Positions 15,631-56,262 of a DNA stretch of 64,000 bases are shown piece by piece. A model generated the notes under the pieces. It was not told the DNA's origin. It was given only the letters and a program-made list of their open reading frames with translations, and searched no databases. Each line of letters starts with the position of its first letter. The stretch's first letter is position 1. The position numbers were made by a program, and so were the translations under genes. The DNA comes from Clostridia bacterium (GTDB lineage Bacteria; Bacillota; Clostridia; HGM11327): contig JAZQMY010000005.1 in assembly GCA_045627045.1 (NCBI GenBank), positions 26,531 to 90,530 of the forward strand, written 5' to 3'.

Positions 15631-15644
15631 TATATACGAAGCTG

Positions 15645-15673: not shown

Positions 15674-15694
15674 AAAAAGGAAAGAGGAGAACAG

Positions 15695-16231: not shown

Positions 16232-16261
16232 AGAAAGAGTTTACAGAATAAAAAAGAAAAA

Positions 16262-16295: not shown

Positions 16296-16309
16296 CTTTA
16301 TTATTTACT

Positions 16310-38402: not shown

Positions 38403-38454
38403 CGAAAGCATGTCCCGCGCCTGAAGCAGATACGGCATTATTTTGAACATAATG

Positions 38455-38485
38455 ATACCCGGAAAAACTTCCGGGTATTTTTTAT
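38455..38485 (+). terminator. Rho-independent terminator
   Basis: ATACCCGGAA-aaac-TTCCGGGTAT followed by TTTTTT. Confidence 0.85.
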
Positions 38486-38566
38486 AGATGCAGGCAGTTG
38501 AAATAAAACGGCTTTTATGGTAAAATTAAAATATAAAACAACTTTATCGGAAAAAGGAGAATAAAT

Positions 38567-39262
38567 ATGTTCAACGGCAAGATGAAGGCTGTCACATTCA
38601 GCTATGATGACGGAGTTTTTCAGGATAAAAGACTTATAGCATTGTTCAACAAGTACGATCTGAAGGGTACATTCAATCTGAATTCGGGGCTATTCGGAAA
38701 CCTCTGGAATCTTGACGTTATGGGAAATTTTGTTCCACACGTCCGCTTTCCTGCAAGGGAAATCCGCAAAATATATGAAGGACACGAAATTGCAGTGCAT
38801 TCTCTTACGCATCCTTATCTTGAAAATCTTGGGGACGAGGAATTTATAAACGAAATAGAGCAGGACAGACTAAACCTTTCGGAGCTTGCAGGCTATGATG
38901 TTGTCGGAATGGCTTATCCGGGCGGCTCAGGCTATCATACGGAGCATTACCTTGACCTCGTACGCAGCTGCACCGGAATCAGGTATGCAAGAACGACGCA
39001 TTCTGTTTATAATTTTGATTTACAGACAAATCTTGTCCGATTCAATCCGACAATATATCATCTTGAATGGGACAGGCTTTTTGAATTGGCAGAAAACTTT
39101 ATTGGTATGAAGCCTGAAGAACCCAAGCTTTTCTATATCTGGGGACATGCATACGAGCTCGATTACAGCGAAGAGGGCTGGGAGAAGTACGAAGAATTCT
39201 GCAGGATGATAAGCGGCAGGGACGATATATTCTACGGAACAAACAGTGAGTGCATCCTGTAA
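38567..39262 (+). CDS. Polysaccharide deacetylase (CE4/NodB-like) family protein
   Basis: AVTFSYDDG, HEIAVHSLTHP (His-His metal motif) and MAYPGG motifs. Confidence 0.75.
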   Translation: MFNGKMKAVTFSYDDGVFQDKRLIALFNKYDLKGTFNLNSGLFGNLWNLDVMGNFVPHVRFPAREIRKIYEGHEIAVHSLTHPYLENLGDEEFINEIEQDRLNLSELAGYDVVGMAYPGGSGYHTEHYLDLVRSCTGIRYARTTHSVYNFDLQTNLVRFNPTIYHLEWDRLFELAENFIGMKPEEPKLFYIWGHAYELDYSEEGWEKYEEFCRMISGRDDIFYGTNSECIL

Positions 39263-39542: not shown

Positions 39543-39574
39543 AGCGAGTTATAGAATAACTTGTATTTTTTCCG

Positions 39575-39604
39575 GAGCCAACAGAAATGTTTGGCTCTTT
39601 TTGT
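39575..39604 (+). terminator. Expression-platform terminator of the glycine riboswitch
   Basis: GAGCCAA-9 nt-TTGGCTC followed by TTTTTG, between the aptamers and the symporter RBS. Confidence 0.75.
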
Positions 39605-39641
39605 TTATAATTTTAACATACGATTCGGGAGGAATCATAAA

Positions 39642-41156
39642 ATGTGGGAAAACATTATCCACGCTATCACGGTCGCCAATGATTATGTAAACAACATAGT
39701 ATGGGGCTGGCCGGTAATCATTCTTATCCTGGGCACAGGTCTTTTGCTCAGTATCCGTACACGTTTTCTTCAGCTGAGAAAATTCGGTGAGTCAATCAAC
39801 ACGACTATCGTTCCTGCCGTAAAGAGCATCGGCAAGAAGAAAAAGGTTGATAAGAATGCAAAGTCAGTATCACAGTTCGAAGCGTTTTCAGCTGCTATTT
39901 CGGGTACGGTAGGTACAGGCAACATCATCGGTGTTACATCAGCTATCCTTACAGGCGGCCCCGGCGCAGTATTTTGGATGTGGATATCAGCATTTTTCGG
40001 AATGGTAACAAACTACTCTGAAAACGTTCTCGGTCTTTATTACAGAAAAAAGGACAAGCATGGCAATTTCTCCGGCGGCGCCTTCTATTATATTGCAGAC
40101 GGACTCAAGTGGAAATGGCTTGCATACATTGCCGCAGTCTTCTGTCTCATTGCCGCAGCAGGCATGAGCGGCGTTCAGGCAAACAAGATTGCAGGAACAA
40201 TTCAGTCCACATTTTCAGGCTCAATCAGCATTGACCCCACTGTTTTCAAGCTTATTATCGGTGCGATAGTTGCGATTCTCATTGCCCTTATCATCATGGG
40301 CGGCATCAAAAGAATCGGTAAGATAGCATCATTGCTTGTTCCTTTCATGTCATTGCTCTTTATCGTGCTTTCACTTGTAATCATAATAATCAATATCGCA
40401 TCTCTTCCTGCAGCGTTTGGTCTTATCTTCAAGAGTGCATTCAACTTCAAGGCAGCAGGAAGCGGTATCATGGGCTATGCTTTTGCTCAGGTAATCAAGA
40501 AGGGTATGGCACGAGGTGTATTCTCAAATGAAGCAGGTCTGGGTTCATCTGTTATTGCTCACTCTGCATCGGAAACAAGAGAACCTGTAAAGCAGGGTCT
40601 CTGGGGTGTTTTCGAGGTATTCTTCGATACATTCGTAATCTGCACACTTACAGCCGTGGTTGTACTTACTTCATATGATGTCAGCGCTTTTACCGGTCTT
40701 GAGAGCGATACGGCAGTTGCCATCGGAGCATTCTCAAATGTATTCGGTTCATTCGGTACAGCTTGCTTTACGATAATTCTTCCGCTCTTTGCCTTCACAA
40801 CAATTCTCGCATGGTCATATTACGGCGAGAAGGCCTGTGAGTTCTGCTTCCAGTGGCTTGGCGAGAAGGGCAGAAAGATTGCTGTTATCGTATTCAAGGT
40901 AATATATGTCCTGTTTATTGTATGCGCTGCAATTATTGAGAGCGATCTCGTATGGGCTATTGATGATACGGCAAACGGACTTATGTCAATCCCGAACCTT
41001 GTTGCACTCGTTCTTTTGAGCGGCGTTGTGGTAAAGGTTACGAAGAATTATTTCGATCGTAAGAACGGCAAGAACGTTGAGCCTATGCTTTCAAACGATC
41101 CTGAGCTGAACGAAGAGTTCAAGAAGGATATCGCTGAGGAAGAAAAGCAGGCATAA
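39642..41156 (+). CDS. Alanine/glycine:cation symporter (AGCS family)
   Basis: Start moved to ATG 39642 after GGGAGG. SQFEAFSAAISGTVGTGNI and FSNEAGLGS are AGCS signatures. Confidence 0.9.
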   Translation: MWENIIHAITVANDYVNNIVWGWPVIILILGTGLLLSIRTRFLQLRKFGESINTTIVPAVKSIGKKKKVDKNAKSVSQFEAFSAAISGTVGTGNIIGVTSAILTGGPGAVFWMWISAFFGMVTNYSENVLGLYYRKKDKHGNFSGGAFYYIADGLKWKWLAYIAAVFCLIAAAGMSGVQANKIAGTIQSTFSGSISIDPTVFKLIIGAIVAILIALIIMGGIKRIGKIASLLVPFMSLLFIVLSLVIIIINIASLPAAFGLIFKSAFNFKAAGSGIMGYAFAQVIKKGMARGVFSNEAGLGSSVIAHSASETREPVKQGLWGVFEVFFDTFVICTLTAVVVLTSYDVSAFTGLESDTAVAIGAFSNVFGSFGTACFTIILPLFAFTTILAWSYYGEKACEFCFQWLGEKGRKIAVIVFKVIYVLFIVCAAIIESDLVWAIDDTANGLMSIPNLVALVLLSGVVVKVTKNYFDRKNGKNVEPMLSNDPELNEEFKKDIAEEEKQA

Positions 41157-41219: not shown

Positions 41220-41534
41220 TAGGCAAATATGAAATCAAAAATGAAATTGGACAGCGACAAAAGACTTTATCGGCTCTGAAATGAAAGATAGCTTTGGATG
41301 AGATTTGATCGGAAAACGTGAAACATTGATCCTGCGGCGCAGATGTGCGCCTCTGCGGGCTGAAAATAAAACATCCTTCGGAATCGGATGAGAAGAGAGG
41401 ACATTCTTCACACACGTTCAGGAAAGATACATAAAAATTTTCTTGACTAAAAAAGAAAAAAATGATACAATTAAAAATATTTATATAAAAAAATAACGAA
41501 AACCGCCTCTTTGTCAGTTTTCGGGGAGTGTTAT

Positions 41535-42812
41535 ATGCCGAATTTCAAACGATTCGATTTTTTGAAGGATCCGAAACGCTTCAAAACGTATTTAAGACCG
41601 GTCGCAAATCTGATCTGCGCACCGTATCTGAAAAAATACAAGCCGAGGATCACGTTTCATAACGGTGCGGAAAATGTCAAGGGACCGTTCCTGCTCCTGT
41701 GCAATCATAATTCATTTATGGATTTCAGCGTTGCATACAAGCTGCTGAAAGGGGAAAATCCGAATTTTGTCGTTGCAATTGACGGTTTCATAGGCAGAGA
41801 ATGGCTTCTTCGGGACATAGGATGTATCTGCAAACGCAAATTTACGAATGATACCGTGCTTGTCCGCAAAATCAAAAAGGTACTCGATCGCGGCGACATT
41901 CCAGTAATTTATCCGGAGGCACGTTACTCGCTCTGCGGGACAACGGCTGTTCTTCCAAAGTCGCTCGGCAAAATGGTGAAGCTTTTCCGCGTGCCTGTCA
42001 TGACGCTGATTTGTCACGGCCACCATATCAATGAACCATTCTGGGATACTTCTCACGCAAGAGGAATTCCCTATAACGAAGCTGATTATACACTTCTTTT
42101 CACAAAAGAGGAATTAGATGAGCTTTCCGTTGACGAAATCAACAGCCGCCTTGCCGAGACATTCAGATATGATGATTTTGCGTGGCAGAAGGAAAAGAAA
42201 ATCTGTATTGATGATCCGAAGCGTGCGGACGGATTGGATAAAGTTCTGTATCAGTGTCCCTGCTGCAATAAGGAATTCGGTATGAAATCCGAAGGTACCC
42301 GGATTTACTGTTCACATTGCGGAAAAACTTGGGAAATGACTGAGTACGGTGAGCTGAAGGCGACAAACGGTGAGACTGAATTTTCTCATATACCGGACTG
42401 GTACGAATGGGAGCGTGCGAATGTCAGAAAAGAAGTGGAGGAGGGCAGATACTCAACGGGAATCATGCCTGTCAGAGTGAAATCACTTCCGAATGCGAAA
42501 AAGTTCATCGACGTAGGAACGGGAACGATGATTCACGATATGCAGGGCTTTTATGTGAAGCTCGACAATCCGGAAAAGAGCGATACAACAGAAATCTGCC
42601 TGAAAGCTGCAAATACCTATTCAGTCCACATTGAATACCGCTATCTCTTCAAAAACGGTGACTGCGTGGATCTGAATACATCAAAGGACACCTGGTACGT
42701 ATATCCTTATGACTGCGATTTTTCCGTGACGAAAATGGCACTGGCAACGGAGGAGCTGTATTTTGAGAAAATGCGAAAATCCGGAAAGGAAATACAACCG
42801 GGGCTTGCCTGA
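41535..42812 (+). CDS. Acyltransferase (PlsC/LPLAT family) with extra C-terminal domain
   Basis: H-x4-D acyltransferase motif NHNSFMD. YPEARYS resembles motif III. CxxC..CxxC zinc-ribbon-like pairs occur mid-protein. Start moved to ATG 41535. Confidence 0.7.
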   Translation: MPNFKRFDFLKDPKRFKTYLRPVANLICAPYLKKYKPRITFHNGAENVKGPFLLLCNHNSFMDFSVAYKLLKGENPNFVVAIDGFIGREWLLRDIGCICKRKFTNDTVLVRKIKKVLDRGDIPVIYPEARYSLCGTTAVLPKSLGKMVKLFRVPVMTLICHGHHINEPFWDTSHARGIPYNEADYTLLFTKEELDELSVDEINSRLAETFRYDDFAWQKEKKICIDDPKRADGLDKVLYQCPCCNKEFGMKSEGTRIYCSHCGKTWEMTEYGELKATNGETEFSHIPDWYEWERANVRKEVEEGRYSTGIMPVRVKSLPNAKKFIDVGTGTMIHDMQGFYVKLDNPEKSDTTEICLKAANTYSVHIEYRYLFKNGDCVDLNTSKDTWYVYPYDCDFSVTKMALATEELYFEKMRKSGKEIQPGLA

Positions 42813-42910: not shown

Positions 42911-43657
42911 TCAGATATTAATGACGTTGATGGATCTGCATATATCATTAAGGAGATCAAAGAATGAGTCAAGAGTGATCTGAGCGGATAACATTACGGT
43001 ATCAACTTCAACACCGTAGTATTCCAGGTAGTATTGAAGATTATCCTCTGAAAATGCGAAGTAAGCACAAATATCGTCAAAAGCCAGGGATTCCTCGTCA
43101 ATATGCATATACTTTGTAAGTGAATGCAAATCAAACATATAAGGATTATATTCTTCCGGCATAAGCTCAACTGTTATCTGACCTGAAGTGCAGTCTACTA
43201 GAAGTATCCTGTCATAATAGCTGAACACGAGGACTTCCTTTTCTGCTGACATACCTCTGATCAGGTTTTCAAGGCTGTCTTTTTTAGTACAATCAATTAC
43301 GAAAAGCCCATTGGTGAACGGATTATTCATATATCCGAATTTGCTTTCAGATAATTCGGAAATTGTTGCCTGAAAATAATAATCTGTTTCAAGCTCAAAT
43401 TCACATGAATCATTCATTACAAGATAGGTACAATCCATAAGAATAACGTCTGAAGAACCATTATGAGGATTCTTGGGAGAGAAAAATACAGATGTGAGCA
43501 AAATCGACAACAGAATTACTGCTGCTGAAGCAGAAATAATAGCAGTGTAGACTGTTTTGCGCTTTGAATTTTTTGAATTTGTTTTTTGCGGATTTGCTTC
43601 TTCAATGTAGATATCATCAATTGATGAAAGCTGTTTACTTAATTCTAATTTATTCAT
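42911..43657 (-). CDS. Putative anti-sigma factor / single-pass membrane protein
   Basis: ATGA overlap with the upstream ECF sigma gene. Short cytoplasmic N-terminus, one TM (VYTAIISASAAVILLSILL) and an extracytoplasmic domain. Confidence 0.55.
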   Translation of the reverse strand: MNKLELSKQLSSIDDIYIEEANPQKTNSKNSKRKTVYTAIISASAAVILLSILLTSVFFSPKNPHNGSSDVILMDCTYLVMNDSCEFELETDYYFQATISELSESKFGYMNNPFTNGLFVIDCTKKDSLENLIRGMSAEKEVLVFSYYDRILLVDCTSGQITVELMPEEYNPYMFDLHSLTKYMHIDEESLAFDDICAYFAFSEDNLQYYLEYYGVEVDTVMLSAQITLDSFFDLLNDICRSINVINI

Positions 43658-44202
43658 AATATATTCTCCTTTATCAAGTGTGTTTTAAGGTCTGATCTTG
43701 TTCTGTGCAGAACAGTTTTAACATTGCTTTCGGTTAGTGAGTTGTTTTTTGCAATTTCAGATATGGAGCAGCAGTAAAAGTATCTCTGAATAAATACTAT
43801 CCTGTCACGCTTTGACAGCGTAGCAAGAAATACGTTCAGAGCATTCTTAATAGCAAGACTGTTTGTAATGTCGGGAGTGTTATCAGGAAAGCACTCTGAG
43901 AACTCATCGATTGAAACATCTGCTTCAGAATTTCGCTTTGATGCTGTTTTTCTGTCAAACATATTCAAAGCAATATTTCTTGTGATCCTGCCCAGGTAGG
44001 CACGAAGATTATCAGGATGCTCAGGCGGAATGTTATTCCATACGGCTAAAAGCGCATCGTTTATACATTCTTCGGCATCTTCGTTTGAATTCAGAATATT
44101 ATAAGCTATGTAGCTCATGTATCGTTTGTATTGCTTTTCTGTTTCGAGAATTGCATTTTCAGAACGGATGGAAAACAACTGCAACAGTTCCTTATCATTC
44201 AT
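43654..44202 (-). CDS. ECF-type RNA polymerase sigma factor
   Basis: Start moved to ATG 44202 after AAGGAGG. Region 2 (..DAEECINDALLAVW..) and a region 4 HTH (CSISEIAKNNSLTESNVKTVLHRTR). Confidence 0.8.
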   Translation of the reverse strand: MNDKELLQLFSIRSENAILETEKQYKRYMSYIAYNILNSNEDAEECINDALLAVWNNIPPEHPDNLRAYLGRITRNIALNMFDRKTASKRNSEADVSIDEFSECFPDNTPDITNSLAIKNALNVFLATLSKRDRIVFIQRYFYCCSISEIAKNNSLTESNVKTVLHRTRSDLKTHLIKENIL

Positions 44203-44531
44203 GATATACCTCCTTGTTTTAGCTGAAAGGCCTTTCAATACTAAAGTAATAATTTGCCATAAAAAGGTTACAAAATAAAAAAATAATTATGAACTGCCGT
44301 ATATACTAACATAATCAGATAATAAAGTCAATCAGTTCTATGTCAGCAGGCAGGATAGTTATTACGGATAATTATAATTTGTTTTTCGGAAAAGTGTGGT
44401 CAGAGAAGGGCTGATGCCGGATAGGATAAAAATGTTATGTAGTAAAGAGATTGTTGATTGATTTTGTATCTTGCCAGGAAACTTCAGCATAAAATCGAAA
44501 GCGAAGGCATCCACCTCGCTTTTTTGACATG

Positions 44532-44560
44532 AAAAAAGTGTCCGTGAAACTCACGAACAC
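44532..44560 (-). terminator. Orphaned terminator of tRNA-Leu(GAG) copy 1, now separated from it by the 15.3 kb element
   Basis: Minus strand GTGTTCGTGA-gtt-TCACGGACAC followed by TTTTTT. The 37-nt segment 44534-44570 equals 60282-60318 (downstream of tRNA copy 2) with one mismatch. Confidence 0.8.
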
Positions 44561-44571
44561 TTGATCTGGTA

Positions 44572-44593
44572 CGAGTGTTCATAAGGGATTTGA
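44572..44593 (+). repeat. Left terminal inverted repeat of the element
   Basis: CGAGTGTTCATAAGGGATTTGA. The reverse complement of 59816-59837 is CGAGTATTCATAAGGGACTTGA, so 20 of 22 positions are identical. Confidence 0.8.
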
Positions 44594-44676
44594 TAAATCA
44601 AATTACTCCGGCTCCGAATACATATATTCTTACTCGTATCCATTGCCGTTTGCAAATAATAATTTTGGATGATGAA

Positions 44677-45693
44677 TTACAGTGTGTATTTCTCTTGCAA
44701 GCATTGTATCAATTTAGGTATATATTCAATTTCATTTGCTATTATTTCTTTTATAGTATTGTCGATGTTTTCAAAATGCTTTTTATTCTGAGTTAATTCC
44801 ATTTTTATACCGAGAAGATGTATGTTTTCGGCTCTTTTATAATTCGTTTTTGCAAACAAACAAATTTCCTGGTTTTCAGGTAAAAACAAGTCACAGATTT
44901 GATTTAGAATCCACTCATGTTCAAGCAACACTCTTGCATACCTTCTGTCAACGTAAGCGTAGTCACTGTTTGTAATTTCATTTATGAAATAATCTCTTAC
45001 TCTTATGAGAGTCGAAATACCAAGAGATGCCTCATTAGGTAAATATTCTATTTCTGAAATATAGTCTTTAAGGTTTTTTATCATTCTTTTTATATTTGGT
45101 TCAGGTTCTGCGTTATCATTATAGCTTATAAAGTCAAGATTAATCAGTTCTCCTTTAATTGTCATTAGCCCAAGAATTACCTCTGCTTGTGAAGATTCAA
45201 ATCTCTCAAATACCCCGTTTTCAGTGTATCCTTCTAAAATGAAATTATCATCGTTATAACCGATAATTAAGAAATCGTGTGTATAATCAAAGTTGTGATA
45301 TGCATTTGTATGACAGACGTACTTCTCGTTGATGTTGCCATGAACATAGCAATTGTTATCTAATGATTCCTTTAAGATATACGATAAATTCAAACCGAAA
45401 ACATCCACTAAATCTTTCCGAATATATAAAGTCTGCTTAACCGTTAGTTTCTCTTCTGTTCCCCATAAATCTGTTGTCAAAATATTAAATTTGTTGTTTT
45501 TTGAATTTGGATAATATGAACAACTAACACATTTTGTGCATGCCCATTTTGTTATCTCTTGTGGAGCATTTGCCTGAATAATACCAAATGGATATGCAAG
45601 ATTATGATAACTTAATAATATTGGTTTTTCGGGGAACGGTAATATTTTCATTTCGTTAAATCTCATATTTTCTGATCTATAATTTGTTGACAT
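44677..45693 (-). CDS. Hypothetical protein, possibly papain-fold (C39/BtrH-N-like)
   Basis: 338 aa. Overlaps the FkbH-like gene end by 17 nt. The HDFLIIGYNDDNFILEGY segment resembles the catalytic-His strand (H-x-hydrophobic-GYD) of C39-like/BtrH-like proteins. Otherwise unrecognised. Confidence 0.5.
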   Translation of the reverse strand: MSTNYRSENMRFNEMKILPFPEKPILLSYHNLAYPFGIIQANAPQEITKWACTKCVSCSYYPNSKNNKFNILTTDLWGTEEKLTVKQTLYIRKDLVDVFGLNLSYILKESLDNNCYVHGNINEKYVCHTNAYHNFDYTHDFLIIGYNDDNFILEGYTENGVFERFESSQAEVILGLMTIKGELINLDFISYNDNAEPEPNIKRMIKNLKDYISEIEYLPNEASLGISTLIRVRDYFINEITNSDYAYVDRRYARVLLEHEWILNQICDLFLPENQEICLFAKTNYKRAENIHLLGIKMELTQNKKHFENIDNTIKEIIANEIEYIPKLIQCLQEKYTL

Positions 45694-47140
45694 AATTACA
45701 ATTTAGCATCCTTTCTTTGAGCCAAGCAGAAAAGTCTGCGTTTTTCCCGGTATTCCCGATTGCAATATCCGTTATTATTTCTTGTTTCAGAAGATAATTT
45801 GCCATCTGTTCTTCTACCCCTTTTCCGATTACACGGCATGAAAGTGAGAACAGTTTCACTTTCTCATTTTGAATTGCCATTGCTCCGATCAAACCGTAAT
45901 CGCTGACGGTGTCTTTGTAATACACAGAGTATAGTGTCCCTTTTTCATCAAGCAGTGTTTTCAGACCCCCGATGGTAAAACGGCCTCCGTTGGTTTTTTG
46001 GTTCGTCCGCATAGACAGTTCAGATATCCGTTTCCATTCGCTACTGTCGGCAGGATGTATTTCCGTTTCTCCGATAGTATTCATTGTATCTATTGATGCC
46101 TGCTCTGCTTTGAAATTCATTGCCCGGATTTTTGCTGTATCACTGTTGTTTTCTTTTAGCTTGAAGCAAGAAAGATCTCTATATACGGTATACGGATCAA
46201 AAAGAACTGTCTGAACTTCCGGCAAAAGGAAATTCATTTCTTTTATTTCTTCCGCGGAATCATCGACAAATACAATACTGTCCGGAGAGATATGCAGCAA
46301 CCCGGCCATTTCTCTAATGTTATCTGCCTTTCTTGTATAACCCGCGCGAATAATTGCGAAGTCTGTGTCTTTCAGTAACATTCCTGTATGGCTTTTCAGA
46401 ACTTCTGACAATGTTTCCTTATCATTCTTGGAACAGATACACAGGATGACTCCTCCTTTTAAGAGCCGAAGGACAAATCTTTGAAAATCCTTGTATTTCT
46501 CTGAGATATCTATTCCTTCTATGCCGTCTTCGTTCAGGATACCTCCCCACAGGACACCATCACAGTCCAGCGTAAGACATTTCTTGGTTTTGGAATATGC
46601 GATACAGTATTGGGTATATACTTCCTCCGCTATTTTTTTTATCAGTATCTCGGAATAAGGAGAGTTCCAGCGGTATTTCCCCTTTGCATTATATGAGTTG
46701 TTTATTCCGACTTCGGCGATTATCCTCTTAAAATCAATCAGCACGTCTGTTTCATCCAGAATTTCGGAAATATACAGATTGAGTTTATCGGACAGCCCAT
46801 GATATGAGAGTAGGTTGCCGAATACATTGCTCTCTTTCAAGTAATAGTCTTCAAACCCGAGCCAGAGGATTTGTGCATTTGTTTTCTCCCTTACGGTTCC
46901 GTATATTTCAGTACATTTGTTACACATATCGATATACCCAGTAATATCCGGAACCAGACTCCATTCACTCAGATGAAGATATAATAAGGCAAAATCCACA
47001 TCGAATGTGCGGATTTCAAAAACAGAATTCAAATATATGTATGTAATCTCGATATTATCAGAAAACACCTCAGTAAAACAGGGCTTCAAATATGGCTCAA
47101 AGTTCACGTTGCTGATAACCGCTATCCGAATCATACTCAC
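45677..47140 (-). CDS. FkbH-like HAD-IIIC family protein
   Basis: 487 aa. HAD motif I in the FkbH form LDCDGVLWGG, motif FVDDS, and a C-terminal GNAT-like part. ATGA overlap with the ACP gene. Confidence 0.7.
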   Translation of the reverse strand: MSMIRIAVISNVNFEPYLKPCFTEVFSDNIEITYIYLNSVFEIRTFDVDFALLYLHLSEWSLVPDITGYIDMCNKCTEIYGTVREKTNAQILWLGFEDYYLKESNVFGNLLSYHGLSDKLNLYISEILDETDVLIDFKRIIAEVGINNSYNAKGKYRWNSPYSEILIKKIAEEVYTQYCIAYSKTKKCLTLDCDGVLWGGILNEDGIEGIDISEKYKDFQRFVLRLLKGGVILCICSKNDKETLSEVLKSHTGMLLKDTDFAIIRAGYTRKADNIREMAGLLHISPDSIVFVDDSAEEIKEMNFLLPEVQTVLFDPYTVYRDLSCFKLKENNSDTAKIRAMNFKAEQASIDTMNTIGETEIHPADSSEWKRISELSMRTNQKTNGGRFTIGGLKTLLDEKGTLYSVYYKDTVSDYGLIGAMAIQNEKVKLFSLSCRVIGKGVEEQMANYLLKQEIITDIAIGNTGKNADFSAWLKERMLNCNYVNKL

Positions 47141-47391
47141 GAATCCTCTAATATTTCATTAATAACGTCCATTATGTGGGATATTGAGTCCAATTCCAAC
47201 ATTGTCAGTTTTTCGTCTGGAAAATCAAAGTCATATGTTTCTTCCAATTTTACTATTACCGAAATAAAAACTATAGAGTCTACACCTATTTCTATTAGGT
47301 TCTTTTCTGTGTCTTCCTCTGTAATTTTAAGTTCATCTGTGCATGAATTGAACATCTCAATAAGCTCCTTGATAGTTGGCTTCTTATTCAT
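47137..47391 (-). CDS. Acyl carrier protein
   Basis: 84 aa, acidic, with phosphopantetheine attachment motif GVDSIVF. Confidence 0.8.
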   Translation of the reverse strand: MNKKPTIKELIEMFNSCTDELKITEEDTEKNLIEIGVDSIVFISVIVKLEETYDFDFPDEKLTMLELDSISHIMDVINEILEDS

Positions 47392-48280
47392 CGTTTGCTC
47401 CCATAAAAACTTTTTTATTGATTTCTATCTTTCTTCTGTCTCTGTCGGTCAGGTCGGCTTCTATTAAAGGCAAGAGGTTATCTGCTTCCAACCGTGTGTT
47501 AAAGTCTACTTTCCACTCTTTTCGCTCTTTTTCGCAAAGCCCGTAAAGGTTCAGAAGTCTTTCTCCCTCCGGCGTACGGAATGCTTCGATGTATTTCTTC
47601 AGTATTTCATCCTCAAACACCTGGCTGGTATAATAAAGGACGTAAAAGACATATGGGATTATTTCATATTCCGAACTGATTCTGTACAGCTTTTCAATAG
47701 ATATTTCTTCAAAATTATTCTTTAGAAGATAATACACATCCTTGAACATTTCGTATTTGATACTATTCCTTGTCGCAAGAAGAAAGATACTGTTCATATC
47801 TTTATAATGATGGAGGATAAGCTGTACCATCGTTTTTAGCGGAGGAAGTGTTTTGACCTTTACCCCGTATATTTCCATATCTACTGTATCTGATAGGAAT
47901 TCCTCTATATCCACTCTTTTCTCTTCATATTCGCCCCAAAATATATCATAATTTATATCAATTGTAATAGGTAGATTCCCTACTTTAATTGCGTACTTTT
48001 GCAATTGATGCGAAGAAAGAAGGGGGAGAGCTCTGCTTATCCGATTAGAACACTGGCAAAAACCTATTTTTTGTAAAATACTTTCAACAACTTCTAAATT
48101 ATCTCGAGATACCAAAATATCAATATCTTGATATTGACGCAATCCCGACCTTTCGTATGCCATAATTGATAACGGTTCTCCTTTTATCAAAGCATAGGGT
48201 ATATCACCATTACCAAGTTGGTTCAACATGCCAGAACAACGTGAATACATTGCACTATATATTATGCTAGAATCAATCAT
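47384..48280 (-). CDS. Nucleotidyltransferase-family protein (NTP_transf_5-like)
   Basis: 298 aa. LKGEPLS...YQDIDILV resembles the uncharacterised nucleotidyltransferases found with HPr-kinase-like genes in peptide clusters. 8-nt overlap with the ACP gene. Confidence 0.6.
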   Translation of the reverse strand: MIDSSIIYSAMYSRCSGMLNQLGNGDIPYALIKGEPLSIMAYERSGLRQYQDIDILVSRDNLEVVESILQKIGFCQCSNRISRALPLLSSHQLQKYAIKVGNLPITIDINYDIFWGEYEEKRVDIEEFLSDTVDMEIYGVKVKTLPPLKTMVQLILHHYKDMNSIFLLATRNSIKYEMFKDVYYLLKNNFEEISIEKLYRISSEYEIIPYVFYVLYYTSQVFEDEILKKYIEAFRTPEGERLLNLYGLCEKERKEWKVDFNTRLEADNLLPLIEADLTDRDRRKIEINKKVFMGANDE

Positions 48281-48994
48281 ATAATACTGGTATAATTAAA
48301 TCATCCCCCAGCAAAAGATTCAATTACAAACTTCCTTTTCAAAAATTGGACTGTATGATATAATACTTGTGCTTTTAGGAGAACAGAGGATCAGGCACTG
48401 CTGGGAAGCGACCTGAGCACCGTTCCAGATTTTAAGAAGGAAAATACTTCCGATTGAATTGGCTCATCGCCCTTCGGAAAACATAAGGCAATAAACCAAT
48501 CCGGTAACTTTTTTGAAAAGTCCCATAATCCATTTCATATTTGAACTACAGCGACTTCGGTTGACTGGTTAATGGAGGGCTTGGCTGCGAGCTTTTTCCA
48601 GTTATTGTTATTAGTTTGTTATAGCGAAGGGCACATGCTCTTAGACTAGTTATAGGAAACCAGGGAATTGGGGAAGGTTACTCAGGGAGCACCGTGGCTT
48701 TTTCTTCATTTTCAAGGCGGACCGTCACATCCTCGTCGGTATCGATGTTGCATTCAAAAAGCATGATTATTTCATACTCCGCAAAGAAAGTGGTGAAACT
48801 AAAGTAGCTGCACTTCTCAACGGGCACTAAAAATGCGCCGCAGGACAACTCATAGAAGCTACTGGACACACGTAGAACTAAAGTCTGACTGCTACGCTTT
48901 TGAACTCACTGACAACATTGAGGAATTCGAATATATCTAACGCCACGTTGATAATTCTAATCAATAATGCTACATATTTGCAATGAATTTGTGT

Positions 48995-49906
48995 TCAGAC
49001 ATCGGTTAAATACTCGCAAATTTCCGCAATATCGTCAGCAGTTTTTTCGATTTCCTCAAGATTGTTCGGGATGATAATTTTGTAAAAAACCACCTTATCT
49101 GTAATTTCGTTAAACAAAAAAGATTTTTCAACCATATCGCAAAATTTGTACCCTAAAGAATTTGTTCCACATATGTTAAAATGAAGCAACATTTTTTTAT
49201 TGAACGTATTAGACACTTTATTCAATGATACCTTTTTACTGTTTTCGCGTTGAATAACGATGATAGAATCGATAGGTTGGCATGTTGTTCGATGTGTCCA
49301 TTTATCAGGTGGCTTCAGATATATCTTATTTTGTATATTTCTCCTCAAATCACAGTTTTCGCTATGTAATTGCAAAGCTTCATATGCAGTTTCAGTCAAT
49401 TTTAAACAATTTGCCCCAGAATATCCCACTATTCTCTCGTGCAAACATATTGCGATTGTATCGTCTGAAAAGAATGGATACCGCTTTTTTACAATTGCAG
49501 AGACCAATGTTGTTTTTCCTGAGCCTTTAGGAGCACATATCGGAATTAAATGGTTATTACAAATAAAACCTGATCCGTGCAATAACAACATTTGTTTACG
49601 AACTAAAAACAAGGCAAACGGTAAATTGAGTAAAGTTGATTGAATTTGTTCCAAAGTTATGGCTTGAGCAAAAATTATGTTACTATTATAATCCAGTCTG
49701 TATTTAATGTTTGAGTTGAGTTCCAACTCGTCGATTTCATCTCTCATATTAACACTAACAAACATTTTATCGTCCACACAATTGTTATCACACAAACTGA
49801 TTTCTAGAGTAACTACATCCATAAAAATTTGATTCGAATAAACGTCCAATATATTCAACTCATAATTGGATAATAATTTGAATCCATACAAATAATACTG
49901 AAACAA
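48995..49906 (-). CDS. HPr-kinase-C-terminal-domain-like P-loop protein (HprK-related kinase)
   Basis: 303 aa. LLLHGSGFI...ICAPKGSGKTTL matches the HprK-like core (hHGS/A..G....GxSGxGKS/T). Confidence 0.65.
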   Translation of the reverse strand: MFQYYLYGFKLLSNYELNILDVYSNQIFMDVVTLEISLCDNNCVDDKMFVSVNMRDEIDELELNSNIKYRLDYNSNIIFAQAITLEQIQSTLLNLPFALFLVRKQMLLLHGSGFICNNHLIPICAPKGSGKTTLVSAIVKKRYPFFSDDTIAICLHERIVGYSGANCLKLTETAYEALQLHSENCDLRRNIQNKIYLKPPDKWTHRTTCQPIDSIIVIQRENSKKVSLNKVSNTFNKKMLLHFNICGTNSLGYKFCDMVEKSFLFNEITDKVVFYKIIIPNNLEEIEKTADDIAEICEYLTDV

Positions 49907-49933
49907 GCCATCTCACCCTACTTTATATATTCT

Positions 49934-51631
49934 TTACTTATTCTCAACGATTTCAATTAACTGTCCTTTTTGAAACCGTAACACTACATCCGCAAACTTA
50001 GTCAGCTCATGATTGTGTGTGACAAATATAATTATTCTGTCATTACTATTCTTTTCGCACATATGCTGTATAATAGACTCTCCTGAAGCACTATCAATAG
50101 CGCTAGTAGGTTCATCCATAACAACTATTCTTTTATCTTTTAGATTTAAAGCAGCACGTATATTTGCTAGCTTTTGTTTTTCTCCGCCTGAGCACTCCAA
50201 ACCGGTGGCAACAAATGTTTTAGAATAATCGTTTTGTATTTCATTAAATCTGTCTAAATTAAAAACTCTGGTGAGATTAAGATACTCCTTCATATCATCT
50301 TCGTTTTCAATCAAAAGATTGTTTTTGATACTCATTCCGTCAATAAATTGAAAATCCTGCAAAATGCTTGAAACCTTTGAGTAATAATCAATCAAATTAA
50401 TCTCAGATAATAGGTGATCATTTACCAGTATCTGTCCTTCTGTTGGCCGATATAGTCCTAATATCAATTTTATGAGGGTACTTTTTCCTGACCCGTTTTC
50501 CCCAATAATAGCATAAGTTTTCCCTAACAAAAAATCAAAAGTAATCTTTGATAAAGCAAAACCATCTGTACCATAGTAACGATAAGAAACCTCTTTAAGT
50601 GAAATACAATTTATCTTATCGTCTCTCAATTTTTGTGTCGATATGTTAGATTCTGTTATTTGTTTGAACTTTTCATAATTCTTGCTCTCTAACACTCCTC
50701 CATAAAGGCTTGCAACCAATTTAATCATAGAAAAAAGCACACCGCTAAATTGCAAGGATGTATTTAATGTCACGGTGTAGTCGCCAATCGTCATTTCGCC
50801 TGATAACAACATATACCCAAATAATATCATAATGCCAAGCGTTACACTATTTTGCAAAACATTACCTGCTTGCGTGTAATAGAATAACCTAAGATTATTC
50901 TTAAAAGTGGATGTAATAAACGATTTTGAAATATCCGTAAATGTATATTTTAGAATTGGGTAAGTCCCATTGAGTCGAATATCTCTAGCTTGTTGTTTGT
51001 TTAGCAACAAGCCTTGAAAATAATTGATTTTTCTCCTCATTAATGTCGTTTGATTATTATACTCAACATCACACTTCGCCTTTTTTATCATTAACACATA
51101 ATTGACTATTACACTAGCAGAAATAGCTAATAACACCAAATAATTGAATTGAGCAACGATATAAATATACGATATAATAGTTATCGTGGTAGAGACTACA
51201 TTCAGAAATGTGTCAAAAACCCTTAATCCCACACCCGTTGCAAAGCCAAACGCTCTCTGAAAAATATTTGCTGTTTCAACATCATCATAATAATCGTATT
51301 GCATAATGAACATTCTGTCTAACGCTTCGCTCGTAATTAATAAATTGGCCTGCTGCAAGAGCTTATTTGAAAACAATTCAATAACCGCATATATCAATGA
51401 CAGTATTGTTTGCATGATTACAAAAAATACCACATATAAAAGGAAATAGTATATACTTTGTCTTACAACAATTGCGTCCAATATGTATTTAGGCATTACC
51501 GCGCTAAAAACGGGAAAAAAGCCTCCAATTAAAGCCAGCAAAACTTTTAATATAACAAAAATGCAATTTTTCTTTGCCACAGAAAATATAAAATTTAAAT
51601 AAAATTTAATTTCTTTCATAACATACTCCAA
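49934..51631 (-). CDS. ABC exporter, fused permease/ATPase (no peptidase domain)
   Basis: 565 aa. Six-TM N-terminal half, Walker A GENGSGKST, signature CSGGEKQK, Walker B VVMDEPTS. Confidence 0.88.
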   Translation of the reverse strand: MEYVMKEIKFYLNFIFSVAKKNCIFVILKVLLALIGGFFPVFSAVMPKYILDAIVVRQSIYYFLLYVVFFVIMQTILSLIYAVIELFSNKLLQQANLLITSEALDRMFIMQYDYYDDVETANIFQRAFGFATGVGLRVFDTFLNVVSTTITIISYIYIVAQFNYLVLLAISASVIVNYVLMIKKAKCDVEYNNQTTLMRRKINYFQGLLLNKQQARDIRLNGTYPILKYTFTDISKSFITSTFKNNLRLFYYTQAGNVLQNSVTLGIMILFGYMLLSGEMTIGDYTVTLNTSLQFSGVLFSMIKLVASLYGGVLESKNYEKFKQITESNISTQKLRDDKINCISLKEVSYRYYGTDGFALSKITFDFLLGKTYAIIGENGSGKSTLIKLILGLYRPTEGQILVNDHLLSEINLIDYYSKVSSILQDFQFIDGMSIKNNLLIENEDDMKEYLNLTRVFNLDRFNEIQNDYSKTFVATGLECSGGEKQKLANIRAALNLKDKRIVVMDEPTSAIDSASGESIIQHMCEKNSNDRIIIFVTHNHELTKFADVVLRFQKGQLIEIVENK

Positions 51632-52252
51632 ATAAAAAGCATAATCATAAGGGAACCTCTATAAATTGAATTTTTCAGTTCCCGTTTTTGATTTTTCGGT
51701 TCAAATTTCGAAATTATTTCCATGCACATATTATAAACAAGATTAGTAAGACCGATATTGAACTTGGCTCTCTCAATACCGATTGAACGTACAGTAAGCC
51801 CATGCATTGTCATTGTCATAAAACCGAATACATGCTCAATTCTTGCTCTTGTTTTGGTCTTGATTCGATTGCTTTCTTTTTGCTTTGCTGTCAAAGATTT
51901 AAGGCAGCCCTTTTCATGAACATGATTGGTTACGTGCTTTGGTAATTCTTTTCCTGCATAGGCGGCTGTCGACATAAACTTATTTATCGTTTTTGTCGAT
52001 AAAATCCACAAACCCATTGCTGTCGTGTACATTTGCAGATGTTACGGCATAATCGATGATAAGCTTGCTTTCGGCATCGACTTTGGTATGATCCTTATAG
52101 CCGTAATGTGTTTCATTGCCCTTCTTTGTCCAACGGGCATCAGTATCTTTTTGAGCCAGTTTTGCCTTGTTTTCCTCCCATTCTTCAGGTATTTCGCCGT
52201 TTTTTATTATCTTGTTCTCCTCACTGTTGTTTCTTCGATGGGAAGCGTCCAC
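51616..52252 (-). pseudogene. IS5-family transposase remnant (5'-truncated, frameshifted)
   Basis: Two overlapping ORF fragments (..QKDTDARWTKKGNETHYGYKDHTKVD.. and ..RARIEHVFGFM....RSIGIERAKFNIGLTNLVYN) cover only the DDE core. The N-terminal third is missing and there is a frame shift near 52030. Confidence 0.8.
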
Positions 52253-52268
52253 ATACGTACTATCTCTA

Positions 52269-53621
52269 TCAAAATAATCTGGTTTTGCTTTTTTCGTAAT
52301 TCAAGTATACAATTTGATCCAAATTGTCCTTGGTGGGAGAGCACTTGGGTGATACCTCAAAACCATTTTTCACTCTATATGCAGGGCATGAAGATCCACA
52401 GCAAAATGGATATGCAATACACCCGAAACACTTATTTTTGCGTAGATACTCTATGTAAAATTTATCATCCAAAATCCATAATTTCTCTTTTTCAGCGTTT
52501 ATGTTAAAATACCCTTCGTTAATATCTCCAATTACAAATGGGGATTCACAATCTGGTGATTCTTCCAATGTACATTTTCCGATGCATCCATTTTTGTATA
52601 TAACATATGTGTGTTTTTTATTAGCATAGCACAACTCTGATCCACAAGCAAAATTATAGTGTTTTGCAGGGTAAATATCCATTTCCCCGCACTTCTTCAA
52701 CAATTGCTCCATTATGTATGGATGATACTCACTAGAAATGGCAGAGTATTGGTCGTCATTTTCACCGCCCCAGTGTCCAATAGCCTTAAAGGCTATTTCA
52801 AATCTAGCATCATCCTTGAAATTAAAACTGAAATACTCCAAAAATCTCTCAATGCTGTTAAGAATTTCAAAATTGTAATTAACACGTATTAAAACTTTAA
52901 ACTGCTTCTCTATAGTTTTCATTTGCAATAAATTATTGGTTATTCTTTCCCACGTTGGATTGCCAAACTTGTCATATCTATATTTATCATGAGTTTCCGC
53001 CATCCCGTCCACTGTGATTTGGAAAATATTAACGCTTGCATCAATTAATTCTTCAGCAAGTTTTTTCTTAAGAAGTGAACCATTTGTTGTCATACTGTGC
53101 TGAAATACAATATTTTTTGATTGACAGAAATTATTAATACGAGTCGTTAAGTCAAGTATTTGGTCATAAAACAGCAATGGCTCACCGCCAAACCATTCAA
53201 TTTTCAAAAAACCAAATCCGACAGTTTCATAGTGTGCTACAATAGAAGAATATATATTTTCAATCGTTGCTTGACTCATAAATCCCGCTTCTTTATTCTC
53301 ATAGCAATACTTGCATTTGAAATTGCATTCTAATGTAGGAAAAATAATTAGTGATAAACTATTTTCATCTCCAATAATTTTTCTTATTTGGTGATATACC
53401 CTCAAATCTTCATCGTCATTCACGGCAACGCAATAGTTTTCAACTATGCGTTTATCTAATTGTTCGGAACTAATTGGACGATCTACTAGCGAACGAATTT
53501 GCTGAATTAAAGATTCATCAAATATAACACTTTGTTTTCCAGTAACAGTATTATATACTATCATTTCTTCGGTTTCATCTAGTTCTATGACCTTTGTATA
53601 TTTTGATAATGTGTATTTCAT
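52269..53621 (-). CDS. Radical SAM/SPASM peptide maturase with N-terminal RRE-like extension
   Basis: 450 aa. CNFKCKYC (CX3CX2C) at about residue 90. C-terminal Cys cluster CFGCIAYPFCCGSSCP (SPASM-like). The N-terminal 85 aa (..EEMIVYNTVTGKQSVIFDES..) looks like a PqqD/RRE-type domain. Confidence 0.8.
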   Translation of the reverse strand: MKYTLSKYTKVIELDETEEMIVYNTVTGKQSVIFDESLIQQIRSLVDRPISSEQLDKRIVENYCVAVNDDEDLRVYHQIRKIIGDENSLSLIIFPTLECNFKCKYCYENKEAGFMSQATIENIYSSIVAHYETVGFGFLKIEWFGGEPLLFYDQILDLTTRINNFCQSKNIVFQHSMTTNGSLLKKKLAEELIDASVNIFQITVDGMAETHDKYRYDKFGNPTWERITNNLLQMKTIEKQFKVLIRVNYNFEILNSIERFLEYFSFNFKDDARFEIAFKAIGHWGGENDDQYSAISSEYHPYIMEQLLKKCGEMDIYPAKHYNFACGSELCYANKKHTYVIYKNGCIGKCTLEESPDCESPFVIGDINEGYFNINAEKEKLWILDDKFYIEYLRKNKCFGCIAYPFCCGSSCPAYRVKNGFEVSPKCSPTKDNLDQIVYLNYEKSKTRLF

Positions 53622-55502: not shown

Positions 55503-55628
55503 TTATGAACATGCGATGCCCAAATTGGGCGAACAACCACATTGTGGAACAATATTTATTGTTCCACCGCATCCAGGAATAAAGTTAATTCCGTTGGGGG
55601 CAGTTATGTTGTTATCAAAATCCTTCAC
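55503..55628 (-). CDS. Candidate RiPP precursor peptide B (41 aa, not in ORF track)
   Basis: GTG start 9 nt after AAAGGAG. Translation: (M)KDFDNNITAPNGINFIPGCGGTINIVPQCGCSPNLGIACS. Paralogous to peptide A. Confidence 0.7.
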   Translation of the reverse strand: MKDFDNNITAPNGINFIPGCGGTINIVPQCGCSPNLGIACS

Positions 55629-55677: not shown

Positions 55678-55779
55678 TTAAGAGCAGACACACATATTTA
55701 AATTAATGGTACAGCCACATAATGGAACAATATTGAGATCAAATTGCGGATTCTCTGCTACGGGCAATAAATTACTCAT
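55678..55779 (-). CDS. Candidate RiPP precursor peptide A (33 aa, not in ORF track)
   Basis: ATG 9 nt after GGAGG in AAGGAAGGAGG. Translation: MSNLLPVAENPQFDLNIVPLCGCTINLNMCVCS. Confidence 0.7.
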   Translation of the reverse strand: MSNLLPVAENPQFDLNIVPLCGCTINLNMCVCS

Positions 55780-56018: not shown

Positions 56019-56262
56019 ACTATATTTCAAATTCTCTTGGAGAATGTGAGTGTCTTGATTACTAAACAGACATATTCTTTGTTAATTTTATTATACTACA
56101 CTATTTATTATTTGTCAACTATTTAATCACAAAAAATATATATTTTTTATCATTATTTAAATAAAATTTTACACAATATTTCAAACATATTATAATCTTT
56201 TTAAAATTATTACATAATCATTCAGCTTTTCTGATTCTTGTGATTATTTTTTCAAAATACCC

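Follow-up and report, generated by a model that had tools for sequence, protein, structure and literature searches.

Organization of the peptide cluster

The 64,000-nucleotide stretch of DNA that was analysed (the window) carries a peptide cluster on its minus strand. A promoter-like site (56090..56118; TTGACA-17-TATAAT, 12/12, a consensus match only) is located upstream of two candidate precursor genes. The open reading frame for peptide 1, MSNLLPVAENPQFDLNIVPLCGCTINLNMCVCS (55678..55779), is preceded by GGAGG 9 nt before its ATG, and that for peptide 2, (GTG)MKDFDNNITAPNGINFIPGCGGTINIVPQCGCSPNLGIACS (55503..55628), by GGAG 9 nt before its GTG. The two peptides are paralogous and both end in Ser; peptide 1 has a Cys-rich core. 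The core peptides of the window contain no Lys, and no evident GG or GA leader end was found before the Cys-rich core.

The precursor genes are followed by a gene for a radical SAM/SPASM-type peptide maturase (52269..53621; PF04055), whose best NCBIfam matches, the RiPP maturases CefB, TIGR04463, Clo7bot and PapB (E 1e-40 to 1e-31), do not reach the equivalog cut-offs. The ABC exporter, which comprises permease and ATPase in 565 aa (49934..51631; PF00005), similarly matches many bacteriocin/NHLP exporter models below their cut-offs; neither a C39 match nor a peptidase domain was detected in it. The next gene (48995..49906) encodes a P-loop protein with weak similarity to HPr kinase (HprK-related or ScmC-like). 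Its similarity to TIGR04352 (HprK_rel_A; E 4.7e-4) is below the cut-off, the PDB HPr kinase chains were matched with E 0.004–0.13, the ScmC matches found on its orthologues were faint to weak, and further searches did not lift the similarity above the cut-offs. His110, the motif GK(T/S)T and D149 are invariant among six orthologues of this protein. Nothing similar to the 715-bp gap at 48281–48994 was found among the genes of the related loci, and a 63-aa ORF within it matched no Pfam or NCBIfam family. Downstream of the gap, a nucleotidyltransferase-fold protein of the PsmN-type NTP_transf_5 family is encoded (47384..48280; PF14907, 81.1 bits vs. cut-off 31.2), with orthologues of 45–63% identity in three related loci (L001, L006 and L009).

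The cluster closes with the genes for an 84-aa acyl carrier protein (ACP; 47137..47391), a 487-aa FkbH-domain protein (45677..47140) and a protein designated here X338 (44677..45651, the longest ORF reaching 45693 and encoding 338 aa). A terminator-like hairpin (44536..44562; a stem of 12 pairs and then a T run) about 115 nt past the X338 stop likely marks the operon end. The island is low in GC. Two IS elements lie inside the cluster, which, split in this way, may not be expressed as one unit.

The NTP_transf_5, ACP, FkbH and X338 ORFs all lie on the minus strand at the positions given in an earlier note on this DNA, which also claimed that they overlap by 8, 4 and 17 nt. The 8-nt and 4-nt overlaps could be read directly from the sequence: ATGAATAA is common to the NTP_transf_5 stop and the ACP start, and GTGA to the ACP stop and the FkbH start, the latter only if FkbH begins with GTG at 47140. 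The database FkbH gene call (485 aa) uses an ATG two codons later, which leaves a 2-nt gap to the ACP gene. The 17-nt overlap requires ATG 45693 as the X338 start and is doubtful because all eight homologues compared begin where X338 has Met15 (MKILPFP..., ATG 45651) and the protein is listed with 324 aa in the database. ATG 45651 is thus the likely start of a 324-aa protein, separated from the FkbH gene by a 25-nt gap, and the 17-nt overlap probably reflects a wrongly chosen start codon. In two related loci (L017 and L018), the FkbH gene overlaps the gene after it by 4 nt. The ACP, FkbH and X338 genes are tightly packed.

The carrier protein and the FkbH-domain enzyme

The identification of the 84-aa protein as an ACP and of the 487-aa protein as FkbH-like was confirmed with curated profiles. 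The ACP scored 37.7 bits with PF00550 (cut-off 20.8) and carries the phosphopantetheine motif GVDS38I. The FkbH protein passed the curated cut-off of TIGR01686 (165.2 vs. 146.65 bits), its residues 185–454 spanning positions 2–289 of the 323 profile positions, and also that of the HAD-IIIC profile TIGR01681 (56.8 vs. 35.75 bits). It consists of an N-terminal domain, which is an extra stretch of about 185 aa relative to the FkbH/OzmB-type loaders, a HAD-IIIC phosphatase domain and a C-terminal domain with an SCR motif. The HAD motifs are intact (L-D192-C-D194-G-V-L-W, K238 and D293-D294) and, like S434-C435-R436 of the C-terminal domain, invariant among 28 homologues. By analogy with OzmB, C435 may be the Cys that accepts the glyceryl thioester. 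The protein is best described as a putative glyceryl-ACP loader. Among solved structures, its closest relative is BF1531 of Bacteroides, an uncharacterised protein (PDB 3slr; E 1.8e-22). The FkbH-domain family is very large, with 994 matches at E ≤ 1e-10 among 8000 candidates scored.

X338 represents a family with a predicted BtrH-type fold

No Pfam or NCBIfam family matched X338. Searches of Pfam, NCBIfam and the PDB, with the single sequence and with 9- and 130-sequence profiles, yielded nothing meaningful; matches to MHC and PfUIS3 proteins in sequence and profile searches were rejected as chance. The family (X family) is nevertheless sizeable: 1754 cluster representatives (50% identity) were found at E ≤ 1e-3, and most of them come from metagenomes of gut and rumen Clostridia. 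The suggestion that the 338-aa protein is BtrH- or C39-like was not borne out by sequence, since the window protein matched neither C39 nor BtrH_N (PF14399). Weak BtrH_N matches were seen in 2 of 130 X338 relatives, and three divergent relatives encoded next to FkbH genes matched this profile weakly (E 0.0012–0.062, below the cut-off) over the part with the His strand. In a word-indexed profile search, the 130-sequence alignment recovered only 20 close relatives, none of which connected the family to BtrH_N proteins.

The fold part of the suggestion held. The AF2 model of X338 (pLDDT 97.2, pTM 0.93), compared with the PDB by Foldseek, gave significant matches only to AziU2/U3, CcbD (also as the CcbD-PCP complex 9dks/9dkr) and CtaG, all over the full length (E 2e-11 to 1e-7, probability 1.0, TM 0.54–0.65, 335–372 aligned columns). 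The best match was the azinomycin aziridine synthase pair AziU3/AziU2 (E 2e-11, TM 0.57). The model thus predicts a two-domain BtrH-type fold, with a papain-like α/β N-domain and a helical C-domain, and X338 is annotated here as a putative carrier-protein-dependent transferase of the BtrH/CtaG/CcbD/AziU fold.

The motif HDFLIIGYNDD, pointed out in the earlier note as resembling a catalytic-His strand, is indeed present. In the model its His, H125 (H139 in the 338-aa numbering), opens β-strand 124–132; it is invariant in close homologues and occurs in 114 of 130 family members. No conserved Cys-His dyad was found. In the model, S14-Y15 precede helix α1 (residues 16–28), and the place of the canonical nucleophilic Cys at the α1 N-terminus (CtaG C11, CcbD C19) is taken in the window protein by Ser14, as judged by the secondary-structure register only. 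Among the 130 relatives this position is Ala in 29, Ser in 23, Thr in 22, Met in 21 and Cys in 17; among nine close homologues of X338 it is Cys in seven. C52 and C58 (338-aa numbering; KWACTKCVSC) were rejected as the dyad Cys: they lie on a short helix and strand after α1, are only 61% and 72% conserved, and have hydrophobic replacements. No conserved acidic residue was found in the family at about +16 from the His, where the third triad residue (Asp/Asn) was sought. Acidic candidates near the His are D126 (97/130) and D133/D134 (103 and 94 of 130; N133 in the window).

Gene neighbourhoods of related loci

Related loci were sampled by similarity to the window, and the counts given here cover close subfamilies only; a metagenome scan with the 9-sequence alignment contributed two short loci. 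An FkbH gene was directly followed by an X-family gene in nine independent contexts without exception, among them 3/3 FkbH homologues that had been picked from the hit list regardless of X. The ACP gene lies directly upstream of FkbH in the window and in all eight related FkbH contexts whose sequence extends upstream. Genes for a radical SAM/SPASM protein, an ABC transporter, an HprK-like protein and an NTP_transf_5 protein accompanied the FkbH genes in all seven loci with enough flank, the proteins across these syntenic loci being only 38–49% identical. Small Cys-rich ORFs occur in most FkbH loci, so that the co-occurrence of homologous cassettes with such ORFs, put forward as a test of the link to a peptide, was observed in most loci. 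The precursor candidates end in Ser, Thr or Tyr in 4/7 FkbH loci. A C-terminal hydroxyl residue as a feature of every FkbH locus was rejected, as the candidates of L021 and L006 end in Gly and Ile, respectively.

X-family genes were also found behind other loading enzymes. The order AMP-binding enzyme, ACP, X occurs in L007, and ACP, X on a short contig (L022); in L008 and L010 a carboxyltransferase and a malonyl-CoA:ACP-type acyltransferase precede X, and in L004 an AMP-binding enzyme and a carrier are encoded on the opposite strand from X. A carrier protein lies within 10 kb of X in 13 of 15 distinct contexts; no carrier gene was within reach of X in L014/15 and L019/20. The pair of HprK-like and NTP_transf_5 genes, present in 7/7 loci with FkbH, was found in 0/6 loci in which X is combined with non-FkbH loaders. 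Tandem X-family paralogues occur in L017 and L019. No glycosyltransferase, PKS or FkbG/I/K-type follow-up genes were found in any locus examined.

Proposed function of the ACP-FkbH-X338 module

The comparison of loci suggests that ACP, FkbH and X338 form a conserved module in a radical-SAM peptide-antibiotic-like cluster of gut Clostridia, and this comparative genomics is the strongest evidence for reading the three genes as a functional cassette. We propose, with a probability of about 0.55, that the module adds a C3 glyceryl unit to a radical-SAM/SPASM RiPP; donor, acceptor, product and mechanism are inferred. Judging from its family membership, FkbH would take 1,3-bisphosphoglycerate, its HAD domain would remove the 3-phosphate and the Cys of its C-terminal domain would pass the glyceryl unit to the phosphopantetheine arm of the 84-aa ACP. 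X338, according to its fold and context, would then dock glyceryl-S-ACP and move the C3 acyl group to a nucleophile on the Cys-rich peptide. The acceptor is most likely an amine, as amide formation is common to all characterised carrier-dependent enzymes with the BtrH fold, and since the window core peptides contain no Lys, our best guess for the site is the N-terminal amine freed by leader removal. Direct transfer with His125 as the base seems more likely than a covalent acyl-enzyme, as the canonical nucleophilic Cys is not conserved, although Ser14 could stand in as the nucleophile in the window protein. By analogy with PsmK/PsmN, the HprK-like and NTP_transf_5 proteins probably act on this peptide as well, decorating its C-terminal Ser.

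An alternative offered in the earlier note was that X338 is the missing leader peptidase, i.e. a free-standing papain/C39-like enzyme that cleaves the precursor either ahead of its export or while it is exported through the ABC transporter, which has no peptidase domain of its own. The papain-like N-domain with its conserved His strand is in agreement with this idea, and so are the lack of a recognisable protease in the window cluster and of a C39 domain in the transporter, as well as the position of an X-family gene directly after two ABC genes in L012. However, the place of the nucleophile is held by Ser in the window and mostly by Ala, Ser, Thr or Met in the family, no Peptidase_C39 match was obtained, no double-glycine-type leader is evident in the window precursors, and S8 or S24 proteases are present in several of the related clusters. 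The full-length structural matches are moreover carrier-dependent transferases with a helical C-domain that is absent from C39 domains. The peptidase role is therefore improbable. The regular pairing of X with carriers and swappable loaders also speaks against a peptidase and supports the view that X338 takes acyl groups off a carrier. A cassette unrelated to the peptide, belonging to a polysaccharide, teichoic-acid or polyketide-type glycerate pathway and adjacent only by chance, or an island that is a decaying remnant, is very unlikely. The size of the FkbH-domain family, the uncharacterised Bacteroides protein as the nearest solved relative of the window FkbH, and the low GC and IS elements of the island would fit such an explanation; against it stand the synteny with the radical SAM/SPASM, ABC, HprK-like and NTP_transf_5 genes, kept in 7/7 loci with protein identities of only 38–49%, and the absence of glycosyltransferase, PKS and FkbG/I/K-type genes from the loci examined.

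A counterweight to the acyltransferase assignment is that the best structural match of the X338 model, AziU2/U3, is not an acyltransferase. This pair belongs to a non-ribosomal pathway, where it forms aziridine by eliminating sulfate, and has been described as functionally unrelated to acyl transfer. X338 could accordingly be a Cys-less BtrH-fold enzyme of non-acyl-transfer chemistry which, for example, displaces or eliminates a phosphate or nucleotidyl group put on by the HprK-like and NTP_transf_5 proteins and so joins glyceryl and peptide via a hydroxyl or phosphate. The unconserved Cys, the strict association of the HprK-like/NTP_transf_5 pair with the FkbH module, the terminal hydroxyl residues of more than half of the precursor sets and the action of PsmK/PsmN on a C-terminal Ser and its phosphate all point in this direction. 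On the other hand, X also occurs with adenylating and malonyl loaders without the kinase and nucleotidyltransferase, so that the association with the kinase is not inherent to X, and the L021 and L006 precursors lack a terminal hydroxyl residue; we regard this chemistry as unlikely. The tandem X paralogues recall the AziU2/U3 heterodimer, whereas X338 of the window is a single copy beside ACP and FkbH. A bolder idea, which we consider rather unlikely, is that the HprK-like kinase, NTP_transf_5, ACP, FkbH and X338 constitute one five-gene machine that attaches glycerate through a phosphate, or forms a phosphoglyceroyl bridge or cap, at the C-terminal hydroxyl residue of the radical-SAM-crosslinked peptide. 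X338 would then represent a large unannotated Cys-less branch of the BtrH fold, serving as a general carrier-to-RiPP acyl mover for glyceryl, adenylate-activated or malonyl units depending on the cluster.

Comparison with known systems

BtrH (butirosin), AsbE (petrobactin), CtaG (closthioamide) and CcbD/LmbD (lincosamides) are carrier-protein-dependent papain-like amide-forming transferases. Like X338, they have about 310–350 aa, a papain-like N-domain with a helical C-domain and a conserved His opening a β-strand, and they are encoded next to a small carrier protein and the enzyme that loads it. X338 differs from them in the lack of detectable sequence similarity (neither a PDB match by HMM nor a BtrH_N match) and in the Cys-His-Asp triad, whose Cys is unconserved and replaced by Ser14 in the window. 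BtrH-type enzymes also serve aminoglycoside, siderophore and NRPS-like pathways, in contrast to the ribosomal radical-SAM peptide context of X338.

The FkbH/OzmB-type loaders of the methoxymalonyl-ACP, tetronate and oxazolomycin pathways share with the window FkbH the FkbH domain, intact HAD motifs, an invariant Cys in the C-terminal domain and the adjacent ACP. Unlike in those systems, the window FkbH is followed by no FkbI/K/G-type or FabH-like enzymes and no PKS, and it is paired with a BtrH-fold protein within a RiPP cluster. The combination of an HprK-related P-loop protein with PF14907 and with Ser-ending precursors is known from PadeK/PsmK and PsmN of the lasso peptides paeninodin and pseudomycoidin. 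The window differs in having a radical SAM/SPASM maturase and no lasso cyclase or B protein, and the HprK similarity of its P-loop protein is below all curated cut-offs. No link between the HprK-like/PF14907 pair and an ACP/FkbH module has been reported before.

A non-ribosomal acyl unit on a ribosomal peptide, as proposed here, also occurs in the lipolanthines, goadvionins and selidamides. Their acyl units are PKS or FAS products attached by GNAT-type transferases, whereas here a C3 glyceryl-ACP would act as the donor and a protein of papain-like fold as the transferase. The statement that no acylated RiPP is known to use an FkbH-type unit agrees with our literature search, in which nothing linking FkbH or BtrH to RiPPs was found, nor any account of a glyceryl decoration on a ribosomal peptide.

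If the glyceryl transfer proposed for the ACP-FkbH-X338 module is correct, it would represent a new logic of RiPP tailoring, in which a C3 unit of primary metabolism is supplied via FkbH and ACP and delivered by a papain-fold transferase, and it would provide a function for a sizeable family lacking a curated model. The strict co-occurrence of the FkbH module with the HprK-like/PsmN-like pair gives a starting point for explaining what the PF14907 'nucleotidyltransferases' do in RiPP clusters. The occurrence of the X family behind three loader types could reflect a modular grafting of thiotemplated blocks onto RiPPs, which would serve genome mining and engineering.

Predicted fold and putative catalytic residues of X338

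X338, the 338-aa ORF encoded by the last gene of the ACP/FkbH/X338 cassette (44677-45693, minus strand), has no match in Pfam, NCBIfam or PDB sequences. A word-indexed search returned nine proteins including the window's own (thus eight homologues) and 1754 representatives reached E ≤ 1e-3 in an exhaustive HMM search, the 150 of them listed being mostly about 320-350 aa long. Judged from these sequences, the family of its homologues (X family) is sizeable and uncovered by the models searched here. Two AF2 models of X338, built from 9 sequences (pLDDT 81) and from 130 (pLDDT 97.2, pTM 0.93), gave an identical outcome in Foldseek. Significant PDB matches were limited to three groups, each aligned over the full length at a probability of 1.0: AziU2/U3 (E 2e-11, TM 0.57), CcbD (E about 1e-7, TM 0.60-0.65; structures complexed with the CcbZ PCP among them) and CtaG (E about 1e-7, TM 0.55-0.60). 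BtrH, AsbE and MllDE are grouped in the literature with this fold, and the acyl donor of AsbE and BtrH is carrier-protein-bound. Three divergent X-family members encoded directly after FkbH elsewhere gave weak, concordant BtrH_N matches in the region with the His strand. The earlier note's guesses of a BtrH-like fold and of HDFLIIGYNDD as the His strand were therefore right: His125 (numbered in the likely 324-aa form; H139 of the 338-aa ORF) opens a β-strand, is invariant in close homologues and is found in 114 of 130 relatives.

The Cys-His dyad which had been expected along with this fold was found only in its His half. The canonical nucleophile Cys was not found in X338, where position 14, just ahead of the long helix α1 (residues 16-28) in the stretch S14-Y15-H16, is Ser; the register of this position relative to known enzymes is deduced from secondary structure. 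Position 14 is Cys in 7/9 close homologues, and the 130 relatives carry Ala (29), Ser (23), Thr (22), Met (21) or Cys (17) there. Around it, Tyr15 is conserved (111/130), as is position 16 (His or Gln). The Cys residues of KWACTKCVSC were rejected as the dyad Cys, as they lie after α1 and are 61% and 72% conserved. We regard the X family as a branch of the BtrH fold in which most members lack this Cys.

Conserved context of the X family

The strongest line of evidence for the module is comparative genomics of sequences from 23 loci (about 15 distinct contexts) in genome and metagenome assemblies, annotated uniformly with HMMs. An X-family gene follows FkbH directly on the same strand in nine independent contexts, at 23-49% identity; among these are all three FkbH homologues picked from the FkbH match list without reference to X. 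Radical SAM/SPASM, ABC, HprK-like and NTP_transf_5 genes were all present in 7/7 FkbH contexts with enough flank, most of which also contain small Cys-rich ORFs. Thus, the restriction of the cassette to polysaccharide or polyketide contexts, which would have spoken against a role in peptide maturation, was not observed.

Other loci pair X with other loaders. An AMP-binding enzyme, ACP and X follow one another in L007, and ACP then X also occur in the short contig L022. In L008 and L010/11, an acetyl-CoA-carboxylase-type carboxyltransferase and a malonyl-CoA:ACP-type acyltransferase precede X, and the ACPs are encoded at other places in the cluster; the L012 cluster includes an ACP-ferredoxin fusion, and L004 has an AMP-binding enzyme and a carrier protein on the strand opposite X. 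All these are likewise radical-SAM/ABC peptide clusters, and no HprK-like kinase or NTase was found in any of them. The enzyme that unloads the acyl group from the carrier would be expected to stay the same while loaders and carriers change, and X shows this pattern.

Several loci showed further peculiarities. A Glyoxalase_4 (VOC superfamily) gene, absent from the window, lies directly before ACP in three FkbH loci, L009 (7571-7981), L018 (8322-8702) and L021 (7791-8171); its product might modify the glyceryl unit on the ACP, e.g. as an epimerase. Tandem X paralogues, one canonical and one divergent, in L017 (2358-4366) and L019 (2889-4963) are reminiscent of the AziU2/U3 heterodimer, and an RHS-repeat toxin-like gene follows each pair. 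In L009, the ORF right after FkbH (10127-10237) covers just 37 aa of a close X338 homologue, and behind it comes a full-length divergent X gene without the His (10373-11407), an arrangement that looks like gene replacement or decay. The gene after FkbH in L016 (10474-12279) encodes 601 aa with an X domain (E 1.5e-16) and a long C-terminal extension. L010-L013 share a downstream block (~11800-17800; genes for 166, 149, 158-160, 265, 150 (DUF4262), 265-299 (CxxCxxCC) and 222 aa, then HipA_C) behind two quite different cassettes (β-Ala/A-PCP/two rSAM/malonyl loading in L010/11; rSAM/S8/two ABC in L012/13). The X gene lies at the boundary, which suggests a cassette-swapping hotspot or mobile element.

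The cluster in the window

The minus-strand peptide cluster is a low-GC island (44000-54000; GC 32-38% vs 40-46% in the flanks), a composition which suggests horizontal acquisition. Two small Cys-rich ORFs (55678-55779 and 55503-55628, minus, from ORF reading) are paralogous ([IV]P.CG.TIN), each with a good ribosome-binding site, and their core peptides contain no Lys. The radical SAM/SPASM gene (52269-53621, minus) encodes an enzyme nearest to the RiPP maturases CefB, TIGR04463, Clo7bot and PapB, all below equivalog cut-offs. The ABC exporter (49934-51631, minus) is followed by a P-loop protein (48995-49906, minus) which is weakly HprK-like (TIGR04352, E 4.7e-4; HPr kinase chains, E 0.004-0.13), the PF14907 nucleotidyltransferase-fold gene (NTase; 47384-48280, minus) and the 84-aa ACP (47137-47391, minus; Pfam PP-binding 37.7 bits vs cut-off 20.8, with a GVDS motif). 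The 487-aa FkbH protein (45677-47140, minus) scored 165.2 bits against the NCBIfam cut-off of 146.65 and also passed HAD-IIIC. Among its relatives only BF1531 (3slr), an uncharacterised protein from Bacteroides, has a solved structure, and the HAD motifs D192xD194, K238 and D293D294 as well as the C-terminal-domain motif S-C435-R are invariant in 28 homologues. A terminator-like hairpin (44562-44536, minus) lies 3' of X338.

Direct reading of the junctions confirmed the 8-nt NTase/ACP overlap (ATGAATAA) and the 4-nt ACP/FkbH overlap (GTGA). The 17-nt FkbH/X338 overlap proposed with them is doubtful: Met15 aligns with the first residue of every homologue (MK[IL]LPFP) and the database entry is 324 aa long, which makes ATG 45651, 25 nt past the FkbH stop, the likely start. 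A 4-nt overlap of FkbH with its downstream neighbour does occur in other loci.

An IS110-like element (53933-55160, plus; transposase split into ORFs of 89 and 305 aa) separates the precursors from the radical SAM gene, and IS5-like fragments (51616-52252, minus; 90 aa and 138 aa, the latter overlapping the ABC gene start) lie between the radical SAM and ABC genes, both named from reading translations. The L009 cluster likewise contains an IS110 element (Pfam). The 715-bp gap between the HprK-like and NTase genes (48281-48994), whose sole ORF (63 aa) belongs to no family and which resembles no related locus, may hold either the remains of a gene or regulatory sequence; in L016, unlike in the window, the two genes abut.

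The genes directly downstream (42911-44238, minus), which have a promoter-like site of their own, encode a 194-aa ECF-type sigma factor and, probably, a 248-aa anti-sigma protein. In L018, a sigma-like gene (Sigma70_r4_2) with weak similarity to one of the window's proteins (E 2e-6), and then a DUF4367 gene lie a few kb downstream of X. Upstream and outside the cluster are housekeeping-type genes (37467-39262, 39561-41156 and 41511-42812, plus) including, by sequence appearance, two probable polysaccharide-deacetylase-like proteins, one sodium:alanine-symporter-like and one acyltransferase-like protein.

Proposed function and alternatives

The function outlined here for the module goes further than the family and fold assignments and the synteny, and is inferred. 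From what is known of its family, the FkbH protein would take a glyceryl unit from 1,3-bisphosphoglycerate and load it onto the ACP; X338 would dock glyceryl-S-ACP and move the unit to the modified peptide. BtrH and AsbE form amides, and CtaG and CcbD have been described as carrier-dependent amide-forming enzymes. Since amides are what the characterised carrier-dependent enzymes of the fold make, and Lys is missing from the window's core peptides, the best guess for the acceptor is the N-terminal amine set free by leader removal. Direct His-assisted transfer would be likelier than the ping-pong route of CtaG because there is no conserved Cys. By likeness to PsmK and PsmN, which modify the C-terminal Ser of pseudomycoidin (PMC6993621), the HprK-like/PF14907 pair probably modifies a C-terminal Ser. 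Both window peptides end in Ser, as do those of L016 and L018; L009 peptides end in Thr and Tyr, and the L021 and L006 candidates in a residue without a hydroxyl. The presence of kinase and NTase in 7/7 FkbH loci versus 0/6 loci with other loaders points to a link between the two chemistries, which could, speculatively, be a phosphate-glycerate connection.

AziU2/U3, the best structural match, has been described as functionally unrelated to acyl transfer, and an AziU-like non-acyl chemistry of X338 is an unlikely but serious alternative. The earlier note had also offered X338 as the missing leader peptidase, which is improbable: the nucleophile is absent, no similarity to C39 was seen, the C-domain is helical and X is associated with carrier proteins. 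In this genome, the window copy may well no longer be expressed as one unit because of the two IS insertions; that the cassette is decayed, or unrelated to the peptide, is nevertheless very improbable given the conserved synteny.

A full-text literature search found no relevant paper joining FkbH or BtrH with RiPPs. Taken singly, FkbH loading, transfer of the BtrH type, acylation of RiPPs and phosphorylation of a C-terminal Ser are known; their combination, with a Cys-less family as the putative RiPP-side transferase, would be new.
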